Of a DNA stretch of 64,000 bases, positions 25,201 through 34,200 are shown one piece after another. A program made the position numbers. The stretch is from Longimicrobiales bacterium. GTDB taxonomy: Bacteria > Gemmatimonadota > Gemmatimonadetes > Longimicrobiales > Gaopeijiaceae. Positions within the stretch are counted from its first letter, which is position 1, and each line of letters opens with the position of its first letter. Where the stretch lies: NCBI GenBank assembly GCA_965248195.1, contig CBDFIQ010000001.1, forward strand, positions 1-64,000, given 5' to 3'.

Positions 25201-28200
25201 AGCGACGCCCTTCGTTACAACATCCCTCCGGACCTCGAGATCGAAGGGGACAAACATCGCAGAATAGTCGTCGGGGAGTCACTGACGGTGGTCGCAATTG
25301 CAAGCGATCCCGACAGTCTTCCGATGAGAAGCACCCGAAGCCGAGTTCCCACCAATCTGGACGAGCTGTATCGGCCTCCCTCGTCTGTGGTCGTTTTGAG
25401 CGGACCCGGTCTACGGCTGTCGTGGATCGTTTACCGGGGCTCTGCCCGGACTGTGACGTTTTCACCGGTCCAGATGAAGACCTGGACGGACTCGCGGATG
25501 TACGGGAACTCTCCATGGTCGCCTCCGTGGATCATTCCCGAGCCGCCTCCGGATGGCAGATGGGTCGCTGAAGTGACCTTTCAGGAGCCGGGCGACTACC
25601 TCCTCCGTGCGGTCGCTAGCGACGGCTCCATGTTCAGCTACGAAAACCTCGCCGTCACCGTGAAGCCGTGACGATGCCAATCTTCGAGTATCATTGTTCC
25701 GCGTGTGGGGATAAGTTCGAACTTCTCGTGCTCAACTCGTCGCCTGTTCCGGGATGTCCCTCGTGCGGAAGTGAGGACCTCGAGAAGATGATGTCGATAC
25801 CATCCGTGAGTTCGACGGAGACCCGGAGGCGCGCAACTCGCGATATTCGAGCGAGGAATCGAGCGCTGAGGAAAGATCACGACCATGAAGAAGTGAAACG
25901 ACTCGAATCGCACGCTAGCGATCATGACGACTAGGAAGCTCTACGCCACCCTTGGGTGCGCCGGTGTTGGGCACTGCGGTCTCGGGAGCCCCAGGGCCGG
26001 GCACGCCTCGCTGGCTGCGCTCCTCGTGGTGGGTGGGGTCGCGATGGTACTATTCGGCGCGCACCCCTCCTCTACCGATCTTGCGTTCGCGGGTCCGATT
26101 ACACCCCACTTCGCTCCGACGGACGCGGAAGACGCCCGGGAGATCCTCGACGCCTACTGTGTATGGTGTCACAACGAGACGCGCCTCACCGGTGGACTGG
26201 CGCTCGACGTGTTGGACGTCGAAGACCCGGGTGCAGCTGCCGGTACCTGGGAGAAGGTCATCCGGAAGCTTCGAACCGGCACCATGCCGCCGGGCGGCGT
26301 GCAACGACCCGATCCCGCCGAATATGATCTCGTGGCGAGCTGGCTGGAGACGGGAATCGACGGAACGGCCTCGGCCGCCGAGCCCAACCCAGGTAGGACG
26401 AATGCGATCCACCGTCTCAACCGCCTGGAGTACAACAACGCCATCAACGACCTGTTCGTGCTCGACGTGGATGTCAGGTCGCTTCTGCCGGGCGACGAGA
26501 CGGCGGATGGCAGCTTCGACAATTTCGCCGACGCTCTCTCCATCACGACCACCCATATGGAGCGGTACATGTCCCTGGCCCGTCAGGTGACACGTCTCGC
26601 GACGGGCCTCCCTCCCGCAGCTCCCAGCGTGGCAACCTTCGAGGTTCCGCTGCACGTGGTACAGGACCAGCGTCAGAGTGAAGACCTCCCCTTCGGGTCA
26701 CGAGGCGGTACTGCGGTTCGTTATGATTTCCCGGTTGACGGTGAATACCTGATCAAGATCCAGCTCCGCAGGCAGTACCAGGACTACCTGATGGGCATGG
26801 GATGGTCGCAGCAGCTCGACGTCAGGCTCGACGGAGAGCTCCTCGAGAGGTTCACGGTGGGCGGGGGAGCCAGCGAGTTCAGGCCCGCGGCCGCCAGCTA
26901 CGCGGGTGCGGGGGAGCCGGGTTCGGCTGGTTCTCCCGAGTGGGAAGAGTACATGCAGTCGACAGGAGACGCTCATCTGGAGGTTCGCCTGACGGTCGAG
27001 GCCGGGCCTCGTGTGGTCGGCATATACTTCGTCAGAGAGCAGTGGGAGCCGGAGCTACTGCCGCAGCCGCGTCAGAGAGGGAGGGTCCTGACGAACGATC
27101 AGATCTACATGGACGCCGCAAGCGTACACTCGGTTCAGATAGCAGGCCCGTACGAGATCGCCGGCGCGGACAGGGACACCCCAAGCCGTACGGAAATTTT
27201 CGGGTGCCGTCCCGAGCCCGGCGCGGAAGAAGAGCCTTGCGCCACGCAGATCCTCTCGAAAATGGCCCGACGCGCCTATCGCCGTCCGGTCACGGACCAG
27301 GACGTGCAGGTATTGCTCGAGTTCTTCCGCCAGGGTCGCTCGGAGGGGGCCAGCTTCGACGCCGGGATCCAGCTCGCATTGGAACGACTCGTTGTCGATC
27401 CGGAGTTCCTCTTTCGCATATATCGGGCGCCCACCGGGGTCGATCCGGGCGACGTCTATGCCCTCGACGACGTGGCCATCGCCTCCCGGCTGTCCTTCTT
27501 CCTGTGGAGCAGTATCCCCGACGAGCCCTTGCTCGAGCTAGCGGAGGACGGGCGCTTGACGGATCCCGCCGTGCTCGAGGAGCAGGTTCGAAGGATGTTG
27601 GCGGATCCACGCGCCATCGACGCGCTCGTCGACGGCTTTGCGGCTCAGTGGCTGAACCTTCGCCTGCTTCCCGAGAAGCTCGCCGATCCCCTCAAGTATC
27701 CCGATTTCGACGACAGTCTCCTCGAAGCGTTCCAACAGGAGACGGAGATGTTCGTCGCGAGCAATCTGCGTGACGATCGCCCCATTCCGGAGCTACTGAG
27801 CGCAGACTACACGTACGTAAATGAGCGATTGGCGAGGTTCTATGGGATCCCGGGTGTCTACGGCAGCCGCCCGCGCCGAGTTACGCTTCCGAATCCCGAT
27901 CAGCGGGGAGGCCTGCTCGCGCACGGAGGGCTGATGGCGATTACCGCTTACCCGGACCGCACCTCGCCCGTGTTGCGAGGCAAGTGGCTTCTGGACAATA
28001 TCCTGGGCGCGGATCCGCCACCGCCGCCCGCCAACGTGGACACCAGCCTGGATCAGGGCCCGGAGGCGGAAGCGCTCGGCATCCGCGAGCGACTGGAGCG
28101 GCACCGAGCCGATCCTCTCTGCGCCAGTTGCCATACGCTCATGGATCCCCTGGGGTTCGCGCTCGAGGAGTTCGATGCCGTGGGAGCGTGGCGGGATACC

Positions 28201-31200: not shown

Positions 31201-34200
31201 TCGACTCGGTGAGGGAGTTCCTGGTTGCGGAGGCCGCCCGCTAAGACTTGCCATTTTACCCGATCCGTGCCTGGCACGGATCGACAACATCCATTTCGTC
31301 TTGGGCGCGGCAGCCCAGAGGAGCAAACCATGACAACGAGGAAGCGTTTCGTGTTCGCCGGCGTGGCGATCGTTTTTGGAGCGGGTTTCATGCTGGGCAG
31401 CACGACGCAGGGCATCCAGGACGCCCAGGCGCAGTCCGCCGACCGCATCTTCGAGCTCAGGACCTACACGGCTCCTGAAGGCAAGCTGCCCAACCTACAA
31501 GCCCGCTTCCGCGATCATACGATGGATCTGTTCGAACGGCATGGAATAACGAACATCGGTTACTGGACGCCCCAGGACGAGCCGAACTCCTCGAACACCC
31601 TGGTCTACATCATCGCCCACGCCAACCGTGAGGCGGCAGCGGCGAGTTGGGACGCATTCCGAAACGATCCCGAATGGCGGGAGGTGAGCCGCGTGTCCCA
31701 GGTGGACGGCCGAATCGTGAGTAACGTGGAGTCGGTGTTCCTCGATCCGACGGACTATTCGCCTATTCAGTAACGGGCCCTGACAAGCGGCCGGACGCCC
31801 GGGACAGAGAGGTGTCCCGGGCGATCAGCCTTTGGGCTCGGCAGCGTCGAAAAAGGTAGGGGCCGGCGACTTCCCGGGTTGCCGCGCTAAAAACCCACGC
31901 CCTTCACGTTCAGTCGAACGCGCACCAAGCGCGTATTGGCCGTGATGAACAGTGTGAAGCCATCTTCACCGAACGTGGCGTTGGACGTCCTAGGCGGCGC
32001 CATGATCGAGCCCAGGTGCTCCCCGCCCGCGTTGATGATCAACACTCCACCCCCTGGGCCGGTAAGGTATACGTTCCCCTGTTGATCGACGGCCATGCCG
32101 TCGCCCCACGAATCGAAGAAGACGCGACCATTGCCGAGGTTGCCGTCGGGCTCCACGTCGTACGCCATGACGACGGGCTGATTCGCCCCATCCGAGTTGG
32201 CCACGTAGAGGACGGATTGGTCGGGTGAGAACGCGATGCCGTTCGGCCGAGAGAGATCGTCGACCTGCAGGGTCAAAGATCCGTCAGCAGCCAACCGGTA
32301 CACGCCCTGAAAGTCGAGCTCCTTCGGTTCGTTGCCCCCTTCCAGTCCGTACGGTGGGTCGGTGAAGTACAGATCTCCGTTATTGCGCGGCGCCACGTCG
32401 TTGGGCGAATTGAAGCGTTGTCCCCCGTACTCCCCGGCGAGGGTCTCGAAGTTGGACTCGGGTGCGTCCCAGGGAGCGTTCATACGGGCGATGCGCCGAT
32501 CACCGTGCTGGGCCAAGACGAGTCTTCCCTGCGCGTCCAGGGCCAGGCCGTTGGATCCGCTCTCCCCTTCCCTGGGCATCTCCCCCGTGTATCCCGCCGG
32601 TTGCAGCCAGAGCGACGCCCCTTCGCCCTCGCTCCACCGGTAGACGGCGTTGTTGGGAATGTCCGAGTAGAGGATCGACTGGAGCTCCGGAACCCAAACG
32701 GGTCCCTCGACCCATTCGTGGCCCTCGGAGAGAACCTCGATCACAGCGTCCAGGGGAACGATGGCGTCCAACCTCGGATCGAGACGCTCGATGCTACCGG
32801 TGGTCGGTAACGGGCCCGAGGTCGCGCCCTCATCAGCCGGCTCGGCGCCCACGCAAGACAGCATCGTCGCCAGCCCGAAAAGGAACGCCAAATGTCTATT
32901 CATCTCGCGAGCCTCCAAAGTCTACCGCGGCGCGAGGAGTCGCCGCTCGTTCTCCCGCACATCTGACAGGAGCCTCTAGCTGTTCGCCGCGCCTCCGCTG
33001 GAGTGCAGCGCAAACGCCGCCCCCTGTGTGTCTATGCACTGTACGACCCGATCCCCGCCCGGTACGTCCATGGGCCCGTTGAGCACCTGGCCACCCAGTG
33101 ACTTCACCGTTTCAGCGGCAGCGTCGACGTCGGGCACCGTGGCGTAGAGGAGCCAATGCGGGGGGGCAGGAATGTTGGGGCCCAGGTTGTACATGCCCCC
33201 CAACTCGTGCCCTCCGCTCCCGTACATCTGGTAGACTCCCATCCCTTCGCCCATGTCCATGGCGTTGGTCTTCTCCCAACCGAAAAGAGCCGAGTAGAAG
33301 TCGAAGCCGGCCTCGTAGTCGGAAGTCGCGAGCTCGTGCCACGAGAACTCGCCGACCTGGGGAGGCCCGTCCCGCCCGGGGGAATCACTAGCGGCCGTGA
33401 ACACAGCGAAGACCGCCCCCTGCGGATCGCTGAGCACGGCCATGCGTCCCACCTCGGGAATGCTCATGGGCTCCACGAGGACCTTGGCCCCCAGCTCCTT
33501 GGCCTGTTCGACGGTGGCGTCCGTGTCCGGGGTGGAGACGTACGCCAGCCAGTGGGGAGGTGCGCCACCGGCCCTGGCCTCTTCGGGAAGGTCCATGATT
33601 CCTCCCACCGGGGCTTCTCCGATGGTGAACATCGTGTAGGCCTGCTCCCCACCCTCCATCTCCTGCGTGTCCCACCCGACAACCCGTTTGTAGAAGTCGA
33701 TGGTGGGGCCTTTGTCCACAGTGAGCATCTCGTACCAGACGAAACGACCGTGAGGCGACTCGGCCATTGCCACCCTCCCATCCGAAGTAGCAGCCACGGG
33801 TCGGGCCTCGCTGAACAGGCTGACCCGGAAAGGATCTGAAGGTACGGCGTTTGAAGTCAAGCGGAAACGACGCGGCCCATCGAGCGCCGGGTTAGGTACC
33901 ACCCCAGCAGCTAAGCGATGATGTTGTTGGTGCCGAAACAAGTGAGCTCCCACCGCGGATACCTAGCCATCCAACCGACCCCAACGGTCGAAGTCTCGTC
34001 GCTGGTGGAGCACACCCAGAATCGAGACCTCTTCCTCATCGATATGGTACAGGAGCCGGTAGGGGCCGACGAGGAGTTCACGGACCGTTGGGTCGTCCAA
34101 CTCTGGCACGACTCGCCCCCGGTCGGCCATGGAATCAAGCGAGTCTGTCGAGTGGAGGATGTCTTCGAGCAAGCGGATCGCGCCCTCGAGCGATTCGTCC

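Follow-up and report, generated by a model that had tools for sequence, protein, structure and literature searches.

What does an exported-looking ankyrin-repeat protein do beside a cytochrome and a DUF1552 protein: does it act on a host, or is it part of an exported enzyme? The question arises from a three-gene module (M1) in the window, a 64,000-nucleotide stretch of a Longimicrobiales contig. The association of a PSCyt3/PSD gene, or "Group III planctomycete-specific cytochrome", with a neighbouring DUF1552 gene has already been published (He et al. 2017, PMC5615132, accessible text). The third gene of M1 encodes the ankyrin protein, and our literature search found no paper that names such a partner of the pair.

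Eight modules in one genome

Profile searches of the whole genome place DUF1552 (PF07586) at exactly 8 positions and PSCyt3/PSD (PF07631) at exactly 8. Ank_2 is found in 11 genes, 8 of which adjoin the eight PSD-DUF1552 pairs. The preliminary description had given each of the 8 DUF1552 genes a PSD and an Ank neighbour and had assigned 8 of the 11 Ank genes to modules, and our recount across the genome agrees. It had also made the ankyrin the third gene of all eight modules, which is true of six; in M7 the Ank gene lies upstream on the same strand, and in M8 it is divergent (Table 1). The M1 genes are separated by 32 nt (PSD to DUF1552) and by 6 nt (DUF1552 stop to Ank start). The 3 Ank genes outside the modules have different architectures and score 68-247 bits against a module-ankyrin profile, compared with about 350-680 for the module copies.

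Table 1. Features of module M1 in the window, and two modules elsewhere in the genome with a different gene layout (C2 coordinates).
Feature	Coordinates	Strand	Basis or remark
Module M1	25924..31244	+	order PSD, DUF1552, Ank
PSD/PSCyt3 protein, 856 aa, gene 1	25924..28494	+	ORF, translation, Pfam, AlphaFold2 model
Hydrophobic N-terminal segment of PSD, residues 29-46	26008..26061	+	sequence; putative signal peptide or anchor
N-terminal class-I-like cytochrome c domain of PSD, residues 67-150	26122..26373	+	VIA-align, Cytochrome_CBB3
First CxxCH of PSD, residues 79-83	26158-26172	+	
Beta jelly-roll domain of PSD, residues 232-414, CBM35/36- and TNF/C1q-like	26617..27165	+	VIA-align
Helical C-terminal region of PSD, residues 420-856 (PSD5, PSD4, PSCyt3, PSD2)	27181..28491	+	Pfam
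Second CxxCH of PSD, residues 733-737	28120-28134	+	
DUF1552/HXXSHH protein, 447 aa, gene 2	28527..29870	+	Pfam PF07586, E 1.3e-92
Twin-arginine R12-R13, Tat-like N-terminus of DUF1552	28560..28565	+	family alignment
H322-x-x-S325-H326-H327 motif of DUF1552	29490..29507	+	family alignment
Exported ankyrin-repeat protein, 455 aa, gene 3	29877..31244	+	Pfam Ank E 2e-59, Ank_2 E 6e-52
Signal-peptide-like N-terminus of ankyrin, residues 1-30	29877..29966	+	sequence
Module M7	C2:2349713-2355105		one strand, order Ank, PSD, DUF1552
Module M8	C2:3131810-3137262		Ank gene divergent

Domain folds and export signals

The AlphaFold2 model of the window DUF1552 protein (pLDDT 90.2, pTM 0.92) has an alkaline-phosphatase-superfamily fold over residues 43-446. 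It superposes on sulfatases, NPPs, phosphonate monoester hydrolases and LtaS/YejM-type domains of that superfamily (Z 16-17.4, rmsd 3.5-4.4, 240-285 aligned), from which it differs by a long helical hairpin insertion at residues about 202-259. Sequence identity to these proteins is 8-14%, and a sequence search of solved structures gave no match to any chain. No cytochrome partner is known to us for any member of the superfamily. In a family alignment of 97 sequences, H322 and H326 are present in every member, S325 in 85 and H327 in 87, and the HxxSHH motif is retained in an alignment (A6) of an ankyrin-less clade. The Tat-like N-terminus is conserved as well (R12 in 95/97, R13 in 96/97, together with L16, G18, G20, L25, P26 and L28), and all 8 DUF1552 proteins of the genome have RR within residues 10-15. 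We confirm that R12, R13, C159, C165, H322, S325, H326 and H327 are invariant among these eight paralogs, as previously described; their identity, given earlier as 38-69%, is 38-73% by our measurement. Across the family the cysteine pair is not invariant: of the 97 sequences 75 have C165, and C159 does not reach the 75% needed for listing.

The window PSD protein matches the Pfam families PSD3, PSD5, PSD4, PSCyt3 and PSD2 (E 7e-18 to 3e-42). In its AlphaFold2 model (pLDDT 84.5, pTM 0.85; residues 1-62 below 50), a cytochrome c domain is followed by a jelly roll of CBM-like fold and then by a helical domain that carries the second haem motif. The first of these aligns with the YhjA cytochrome c domain (9qdt_A; VIA-align Z 8.6, rmsd 2.1, 83 aligned) and matches Cytochrome_CBB3 in Pfam (E 7e-6). 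For the jelly roll the scores are middling and indicate likeness of fold only (Z 6-7.6, rmsd about 3.3, about 105-115 aligned). The helical region is modelled mostly at pLDDT above 90 and, searched as part of the larger model, returned no structure or sequence match. CxxCH motifs stand at residues 79 and 733, and the residues C79, C82, H83, C733, C736 and H737 are invariant across 73 sequences; all 8 PSD proteins of the genome have exactly two such motifs, as the preliminary description had said. Haem c motifs require export for cytochrome c maturation.

The window ankyrin aligns over its full length with the other seven module ankyrins and with 85 relatives. It begins with basic residues and a 17-residue hydrophobic run ending in AGLA, followed by DPPP. 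Comparable signal-peptide-like N-termini are present in 8/8 module ankyrins of the genome and in 44 of the 46 relatives whose first repeat could be located. The PL(I/V)DAA..GD motif previously noted in all eight does recur in our alignment, and is probably an ordinary N-terminal capping repeat of the ankyrin domain.

Linkage, co-divergence and the role of the ankyrin

Among 80 loci from public genomes, a module-type Ank gene adjoins 78 of the 82 decidable DUF1552 genes, with three to four trio-type loci having no adjacent Ank. The same is true of all 42 DUF1552 genes in 23 genomes from 5 families of the window's own phylum, and in five other genomes Ank lies within 5 kb of 66/73 DUF1552 genes; one of the five has 35 DUF1552 genes and 38 module-Ank matches, in places several per gene. 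Where Ank is downstream (54 cases), the median gap to DUF1552 is 68.5 nt. No fourth gene is conserved at the 80 loci, any one flanking family being common to at most 17. Adjacency persists across deep divergence, in MAGs labelled as several phyla. The eight modules give concordant paralog groupings in all three families, and over 102 trios the distance matrices are highly correlated (Ank with DUF1552, r = 0.909; Ank with PSD, r = 0.909; PSD with DUF1552, r = 0.936). Partial correlations, 0.40 for Ank with each partner, do not tell which of the two it follows. The 8:8:8 copy numbers, the concordant groupings and the r of 0.91 with both partners thus support the Ank genes as fixed members of the PSD-DUF1552 unit rather than free-standing genes. 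We also found one in-frame Ank-PSD fusion (P0184, 1331 aa), with the ankyrin signal peptide at its N-terminus and no second signal ahead of the cytochrome domain. It is the only one of 120 proteins listed that has both Ank and PSD domains and comes from a single contig; an artefact of assembly or of a deletion may explain it.

These data bear directly on the idea that the ankyrins are secreted "eukaryote-like" effectors against a host or grazer, placed beside the pair by chance or for co-regulation. Signal-peptide ankyrins are often read in this way in symbiont genomics (PMC8163846, accessible text), and the window protein does give partial matches to the Legionella Dot/Icm Ank effector models of NCBIfam. 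However, these matches concern the repeats alone (104 bits, where 600 are required), adjacency has survived deep divergence, copy number tracks the pair exactly, the ankyrins co-diverge with it, and one copy is joined to a cytochrome, all of which makes an effector role very improbable. Since a recurring trio for exported proteins accounts for most of the ankyrin genes in this genome, their products are probably envelope parts.

We propose that the trio is one exported functional unit, present as eight diverged copies, in which a periplasmic redox enzyme has a paralogue-specific ankyrin partner; we put the probability of this reading at roughly 55%. The three proteins would meet in the periplasm. 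DUF1552, Tat-exported and with its alkaline-phosphatase/sulfatase-type fold, would be the catalytic part, and its conserved histidine/aspartate cluster is probably metal-binding. The PSD protein, presumably Sec-exported, would be its electron-transfer and substrate-binding partner, carrying one haem c in the N-terminal cytochrome c domain and another in the helical PSCyt3 region, with the CBM-like jelly roll in the middle. The ankyrin would follow by the Sec route and act as a copy-specific protein-binding partner, a subunit or scaffold for each paralogous enzyme and no free effector. Its place in the periplasm is inferred from the signal sequences and the singleton fusion.

It is possible, if doubtful, that the ankyrin is no subunit and acts only for a time, either in the periplasm to help the haem protein mature or stay stable, or as a copy-specific inhibitor of the enzyme. 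An inhibitor would hold the alkaline-phosphatase-fold enzyme inactive up to its assembly or release, and ankyrin-type self-protection has a precedent in Bdellovibrio Bd3460. Linkage and co-divergence are equally expected here, since a dedicated chaperone or immunity protein also changes in step with its client. The ankyrin is also the fastest-diverging of the three (paralog identity 34-62%, versus 38-73% for DUF1552 and 39-66% for PSD; mean column identity 26% versus 43% for PSD), and other clades have the pair without it, as for an accessory. The model for a maturation factor is AnkB, an exported periplasmic ankyrin-like protein encoded beside the catalase KatB and required for its full activity (PMC12754779, on Howell et al. 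2000, accessible text). The katB-ankB operon resembles the module in having an export-signal ankyrin gene directly next to that of a haem enzyme, but it has two genes and one copy per genome and serves a catalase, whereas here a c-type cytochrome and an alkaline-phosphatase-fold protein occur in 8 copies. Moreover, neither a catalase gene nor that of another known client lies nearby, the 1:1:1 copy number and near-overlapping genes suit a stoichiometric partner at least equally well, and a toxin-immunity pair would not usually include a cytochrome or reach 8-35 copies in a genome.

Clade distribution and related systems

The ankyrin is confined to one clade of the PSD-DUF1552 pair, a new finding: 112 of 113 Ank-linked DUF1552 proteins form a single pure clade. 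Because of this, the many adjacencies trace to one or few gains, and the adjacency counts measure retention rather than repeated independent association. In a sister clade, whose PSD proteins have two haems, no ankyrin is present at 6 decidable loci. In a distant clade, whose PSD proteins have one haem, none is present at 80 metagenome loci, 56 of which extend at least 1.5 kb downstream. As the pair occurs in these two clades without it, the ankyrin is dispensable for the core chemistry. The preliminary description had called the module ankyrins periplasmic parts of a widespread bacterial module rather than host effectors; linkage, co-divergence, signal-like N-termini and effector scores far under the cut-offs favour this, but "widespread" fits the pair and not the ankyrin.

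The N-terminal cytochrome c domain is present in all 107 complete trio-type PSD proteins (104 with CxxCH, 3 with CxxxCH) and absent from 44 of 46 in the distant clade. That the ankyrin is confined to the lineage with this added domain, and is joined directly to it in P0184, would suit an adaptor that binds neither enzyme tightly and tethers the pair to a component from elsewhere, for example the substrate polymer, part of the outer membrane or a redox partner in respiration. TonB-receptor-like outer-membrane genes near 11/80 loci point the same way. We consider this unlikely: in the sister clade the cytochrome domain occurs without the ankyrin (the 6 loci, and likewise L213 and L215), so the two features are separable; a shared external partner would not demand copy-by-copy divergence; and no gene for such a partner is conserved nearby.

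Compared with the pair of He et al. (2017, PMC5615132, accessible text), the module has identical families in the same order, a PSD3-PSD5-PSD4-PSCyt3-PSD2 protein and then HXXSHH/DUF1552, and adds both the N-terminal cytochrome c domain, hence a second haem, and the dedicated exported ankyrin gene. The ankyrin-less forms sampled here match the two-gene description of that paper. The word "ankyrin" does not occur in its main text or 8 text-readable supplements; Fig. S7, an image, may show a third gene.

Weak support for one functional unit comes from the RNA libraries of two studies, in which short contigs match parts of each of the three genes, with a likeness of mostly 90-95%; most of them come from relatives, none crosses from one gene into the next, and some may stem from DNA.

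The module also resembles the PSCyt1/PSCyt2/PSD1-DUF1501 system, which likewise combines cytochrome-motif multidomain proteins with Tat-signal proteins in many copies per genome and has a proposed electron transport role, its function being unknown (Kamneva et al. 2012, PMC3542564, accessible text). The word "ankyrin" is absent from the accessible text of that paper, and no ankyrin gene adjoins the two DUF1501 pairs examined in our genome. The Pfam families of the two systems differ, and a profile comparison of DUF1552 with a DUF1501 protein matches only weakly, at the C-terminus (probability 12%, E 0.0025). The genome has 3 DUF1501 genes, and both of the two neighbourhoods read contain PSCyt1-PSCyt2-PSD1 genes.

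The eight modules of the genome

We scanned both contigs of the genome (4.86 Mb, 63% G+C) and find eight places matching PF07586 (the DUF1552 or HXXSHH family), eight matching PF07631 (PSD4), and 11 genes with an Ank_2 match. In all eight pairs the DUF1552 gene directly adjoins a gene for a PSD protein (a PSCyt3/PSD multidomain protein with CxxCH haem c motifs), and 8 of the 11 ankyrin genes adjoin these pairs. The preliminary description had claimed that the ankyrin genes belong with such pairs as members of PSD-DUF1552 modules, and this observation is real. Its statement that the ankyrin is the third gene holds for six of the eight modules (M1 to M8, M1 being the window copy), which have the order PSD>DUF1552>Ank, but not for M7, where the order is Ank>PSD>DUF1552 on one strand, or M8, where the ankyrin gene is divergent from the pair. 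It was also correct that all eight PSD proteins carry two CxxCH motifs, that all eight DUF1552 paralogs have a twin arginine, and that the residues named as invariant in DUF1552 hold across the eight. Pairwise identities group the paralogs identically in all three families (M1 with M5; M3 with M4 and M6), and these identities are correlated between families (Spearman correlations of 0.64-0.83 for the eight paralogs). Of the three ankyrin proteins outside the modules, one is a membrane protein whose repeats are C-terminal, another is small, secreted and made of repeats, and the third has an acidic tail; their scores with the module-ankyrin profile are 68-247 bits, far under the module copies.

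The window module consists of three ORFs on one strand (25924-31244), separated by 32 nt between the PSD and DUF1552 genes and by 6 nt between the DUF1552 and ankyrin genes. Its neighbours encode a NIPSNAP protein, a gluconolactonase-like protein and a glyoxalase-like protein, and NCBIfam gives no family name for any of the three module proteins. Scans of 25000-32500 returned no promoter-like site, and the frequency of terminator-like sites did not exceed that in shuffled sequence. RNA-library contigs from four metatranscriptome-library runs of two studies match pieces of all three genes; they are short, mostly 90-95% alike to the trio genes, bridge no gene junction and may stem from DNA carry-over, and we take them as at most a weak hint at transcription rather than as proof for this locus.

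Features of the window module and its surroundings
Feature	Coordinates	Strand	Description
ORF upstream of M1	22910-24682	+	590 aa; single CxxCH at residue 164; no Pfam/NCBIfam family
ORF upstream of M1	24613-25671	+	352 aa; hydrophobic N-terminus; no Pfam/NCBIfam family
PSD protein gene	25924-28494	+	856 aa; Pfam PSD3, PSD5, PSD4, PSCyt3, PSD2 and N-terminal cytochrome c match
DUF1552/HXXSHH gene	28527-29870	+	447 aa; Pfam E 1.3e-92; R12-R13 in Tat-like N-terminus
Ankyrin-repeat gene	29877-31244	+	455 aa; Ank E 2e-59
Mutator-family transposase, full	34914-36095		
IS110-type fragment	36140-36697		
IS481-like integrase	39870-41024		
Mutator-family transposase, two partial copies	40986-41861 and 42287-43114	opposite to full copy	

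The two ORFs upstream of the module are a second multi-copy pair, with about 26 and 21 tblastn places in the genome, mostly side by side; a copy of this pair lies within 7 kb of three of the eight ankyrin modules (chance expectation about 0.9). The mobile-element genes form a cluster at 34914-43114.

Linkage, co-divergence and descent

We then used other genomes to ask how far the trio of PSD, DUF1552 and ankyrin genes holds together. With the DUF1552 alignment we sampled 80 loci from contigs of one genome per species and classed their 86 DUF1552 genes by profiles of the eight paralogs. The ankyrin gene lies downstream on the same strand at 54 of these genes (with the PSD gene adjacent in 47 and not in 7), upstream of the PSD gene and divergent at 21, upstream on the same strand at 3, and farther off at 1; it is missing at 3, and the remaining 4 lie at contig ends and cannot be classed. 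Of 201 genomes sampled from the window's own phylum, 48 contain PF07586. Forty regions around listed matches there, picked blind to ankyrins from 23 genomes of five families, have the order PSD>DUF1552>Ank at every one of their 42 DUF1552 genes. Five further genomes, whose loci are labelled Gemmatimonadaceae, Longimicrobiales, Vicinamibacterales, Pseudomonadales and Acidimicrobiia, have a module-type ankyrin within 5 kb at 66 of 73 DUF1552 places, and some of the seven apparent misses are rearranged clusters in which pairs and ankyrin genes are equal in number.

The three families also diverge together. In distance matrices from 102 complete trios the correlation is 0.909 for ankyrin and DUF1552, 0.909 for ankyrin and PSD, and 0.936 for PSD and DUF1552, and the partial mirror-tree correlations of the ankyrin with PSD and with DUF1552 are equal (0.40 each) and favour neither partner. 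We found no fourth conserved gene at the trio loci, where any flanking family is common to at most 17 of 80 loci. Linkage and co-divergence give good support to the view that the module ankyrins belong to an envelope module and are not free effectors, and the corresponding claim of the preliminary description stands to that extent, but the location, contact and role that it implies are ones we still infer.

Individual loci show how the trio can be rearranged. The genome behind locus L069 (G205, labelled an Acidimicrobiia MAG) has 35 DUF1552 and 38 module-type ankyrin matches, in places several per gene; at its loci L211 and L212, for example, three PSD-DUF1552 pairs are clustered with three ankyrin genes a few kb to one side. 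At L217 (G202:C2:1006448-1025000) the DUF1552 gene is in two halves about 7 kb apart, as if the module had been interrupted by an insertion; the second half is still followed by the ankyrin gene.

The wider DUF1552 family contains pairs that have no ankyrin. Family representatives that share about 35% identity with the window protein branch apart from the rest in a tree, and an alignment of 12 of them yielded 80 metagenome loci with PSD>DUF1552 in all that have sufficient upstream sequence. With a threshold of E 1e-4, no ankyrin gene was found at any of the 80 (56 of them have at least 1.5 kb downstream), and no fourth conserved gene appears here either, any flanking family being present in at most 11 loci. 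The PSD proteins of this clade begin only at about position 140 of the trio PSD profile and so do not include the N-terminal cytochrome c domain; a single CxxCH is present in 44 of 46 complete ORFs. That domain is present in 107 of 107 complete trio-type PSD proteins (CxxCH in 104, CxxxCH in 3). These one-haem loci would fit a tie between the ankyrin and the additional N-terminal cytochrome domain, but the case for such a tie is weakened by a second group, which we found by sampling the phylum of the Vicinamibacterales-labelled genome behind L011 and in which pairs have the domain and no ankyrin. In this two-haem group, no ankyrin lies within 5.5-8 kb at six decidable loci or at L213 and L215, and a fourth conserved gene was likewise absent.

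In a tree of 202 DUF1552 proteins, of which 113 are ankyrin-linked, 112 of the 113 form a pure clade (support 0.56). Its sister is the two-haem ankyrin-less group together with one ankyrin-linked gene (joint support 0.86), and the one-haem proteins make up a clade of their own (support 0.94). Given that the ankyrin-linked genes fall in one clade, the many adjacent cases stem from a single gain or a small number of gains; the striking point is that the ankyrin has been retained through deep divergence and repeated duplication. The conserved polar residues of DUF1552 are also kept in the ankyrin-less alignment, and the ankyrin would thus be accessory and outside the core chemistry.

Predicted properties of the three proteins

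For DUF1552, a model built from a 97-row alignment (pLDDT 90.2, pTM 0.92) places residues 43-446 on sulfatases, nucleotide pyrophosphatases and phosphonate monoester hydrolases (Z 16-17.4, rmsd 3.5-4.4, 240-285 residues aligned; Foldseek E 6e-5, TM about 0.4), which points to an alkaline-phosphatase-superfamily fold for the alpha/beta core. A profile search of PDB sequences gave chance matches only and no solved chain alike in sequence. The conserved polar residues are N56, H102, D130, Q131, D217, D234, D294, H322, H326, H327, D379, H383 and H405, with N in the window protein at the family position D379; the invariant D217 and D234 are predicted to sit on a long helical hairpin insertion (residues about 202-259). 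The window N-terminus, PRRTLLKGLGASVALPFL, has an S/T-R-R-x-F-L-K-like motif followed by a hydrophobic stretch, and from this twin-arginine motif we predict Tat export; RR is found in 95-96 of 97 family proteins. P26 is present in 97 of 97, and within residues 12-31 (window 28527-28620) L16, G18, G20, L25, P26, L28 and M31 are conserved like the catalytic core. Since such conservation is unusual for a cleaved signal, this stretch, which the model predicts as a beta hairpin behind the twin arginine, may not simply be cleaved.

The PSD protein has five Pfam matches, all above curated cut-offs (PSD4, E 3e-42; PSCyt3, 4e-33; the others 3e-24, 4e-19 and 7e-18). Its CxxCH motifs at residues 79 and 733 are invariant in 73 sequences, and together with an export signal they suggest a c-type cytochrome. 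Attachment of haem c requires export, and the protein should therefore be exported. In a model from a 73-row alignment (pLDDT 84.5, pTM 0.85), residues 67-150 resemble a solved cytochrome c domain of YhjA (Z 8.6, rmsd 2.1, 83 aligned), residues 232-414 form a jelly roll with a middling likeness to CBM35/36 and TNF/C1q domains (Z about 7), and residues 420-856 are a confidently modelled helical region with the second haem motif. VIA-align, in which the helical region was covered within the full-length model, matched only the cytochrome and jelly-roll domains; Foldseek with the model found nothing at E of 0.001 or below, a profile search of PDB sequences was likewise empty, and an ESM Atlas search with residues 420-856 gave no usable match.

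The window ankyrin has tandem 33-residue repeats in seven stretches (Pfam Ank E 2e-59; Ank_2 E 6e-52). At the N-terminus, basic residues precede a 17-residue hydrophobic run that ends at an AGLA/DPPP junction, and Sec-signal-like N-termini are found in all eight paralogs and in 44 of the 46 relatives in which the first repeat was located by pattern (the pattern missed it in 69 others, which are unscored). Five of the eight ankyrins (M2, M3, M4, M6 and M7) are longer than the M1 copy, and their C-terminal tails carry cysteines in a pair or cluster, such as CxxC-like endings; no such tail is present in M1, M5 and M8. The ankyrins of M3, M4 and M6 also have an insertion of about 100 residues between repeats.

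To look for fusions we used longer ankyrin relatives, with 120 listed of 3150 matches, and found two fused forms among those 120. The DUF1552-ankyrin form (P0154, 909 aa) is a frameshift read-through rather than a true fusion, because about 90 garbled residues separate the parts and the signal peptide of the ankyrin persists in the interior. The other form, P0184, fuses Ank to PSD cleanly: it has one N-terminal signal, and its ankyrin part leads into the cytochrome domain. A second search, centred on the junction, gave no other fusion among 120 listed matches, and P0184 is a singleton lead. A complex prediction for DUF1552 and the mature ankyrin, both as alignments, gave no answer (score 0.01, mark 0.32).

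The window ankyrin does not qualify as a Dot/Icm effector: its best such match, AnkH/LegA3, scores 104 bits against a cut-off of 600. All 12 NCBIfam matches listed, nine of which are Dot/Icm Ank effector models, lie far below their cut-offs, and the likeness to Legionella Ank effector models is at the level of the repeats. Among known systems, katB-ankB comes closest to an exported ankyrin that works with a haem enzyme; there the ankyrin gene stands beside a catalase gene, and its product is required for that enzyme to be fully active. No catalase is found among the neighbours of M1.

Interpretation and relation to earlier work

We propose, with a probability of roughly 55%, that the trio works in the periplasm as a redox enzyme of three parts: a catalytic protein with an alkaline-phosphatase fold, a partner with two haems, and an ankyrin partner specific to each copy. 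A more specific version, which we consider improbable, is that the trio is a previously undescribed type of periplasmic redox enzyme, in which two c-type haems would connect a metalloenzyme of alkaline-phosphatase fold to the respiratory chain and the ankyrin subunit would clamp or position the mobile cytochrome domain. The substrate of such an enzyme would be oxidised or reduced rather than merely hydrolysed. If this more specific version is true, the expansion of the trio (8 copies here, 35 in one other genome) would indicate that bacteria of soil and sediment use a wide range of substrates that is still unexplored, and the trio would explain much of the "eukaryote-like" ankyrin signal in such genomes.

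The PSCyt3/PSD-DUF1552 pair is very common: a library clustered at 50% holds 16,726 representative DUF1552 proteins (E up to 0.001). The window PSD gene and its adjacent DUF1552 (PF07586) gene are a Group III pair as described by He et al. 2017 (PMC5615132); the word "ankyrin" is absent from the main text and readable supplements of that paper, a statement that does not extend to its Fig. S7. Our literature search found no paper pairing ankyrin with DUF1552, DUF1592, DUF1588, DUF1595 or PSCyt3. The PSCyt3/PSD-DUF1552 pair is thus already known, yet unexplained since its first description, and what is new is the three-gene form, whose dedicated ankyrin in one large clade provides a handle for study. 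The one-haem pair, the two-haem pair and the two-haem pair with ankyrin form a natural comparison for what the ankyrin adds. Ankyrin-repeat counts are widely used as host-interaction markers in metagenome-assembled genomes (PMC8163846). Given 8 of 11 ankyrin genes in modules here, and 38 matches alongside 35 DUF1552 in G205, such counts can mislead.

A possible hint at a respiratory role for PSD proteins comes from Table 7 of PMC7789669, which lists DUF1587, DUF1588, DUF1592 and DUF1595 among unknown-function domains to add for anaerobic respiration and is drawn from a comparison of facultatively anaerobic with obligately aerobic Pseudomonas. For a parallel DUF1501 module, electron transport was proposed by Kamneva et al. 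2012 (PMC3542564). We considered a kinship between DUF1552 and DUF1501, for which profile comparison yields a weak match only. Pairs of PSCyt1-PSCyt2-PSD1 and DUF1501 genes also occur in this genome, at C1:1425000-1436500 (L218) and C1:1364500-1376000 (L219), with no ankyrin gene beside either, and an FG-GAP repeat protein gene lies upstream of one of the two.
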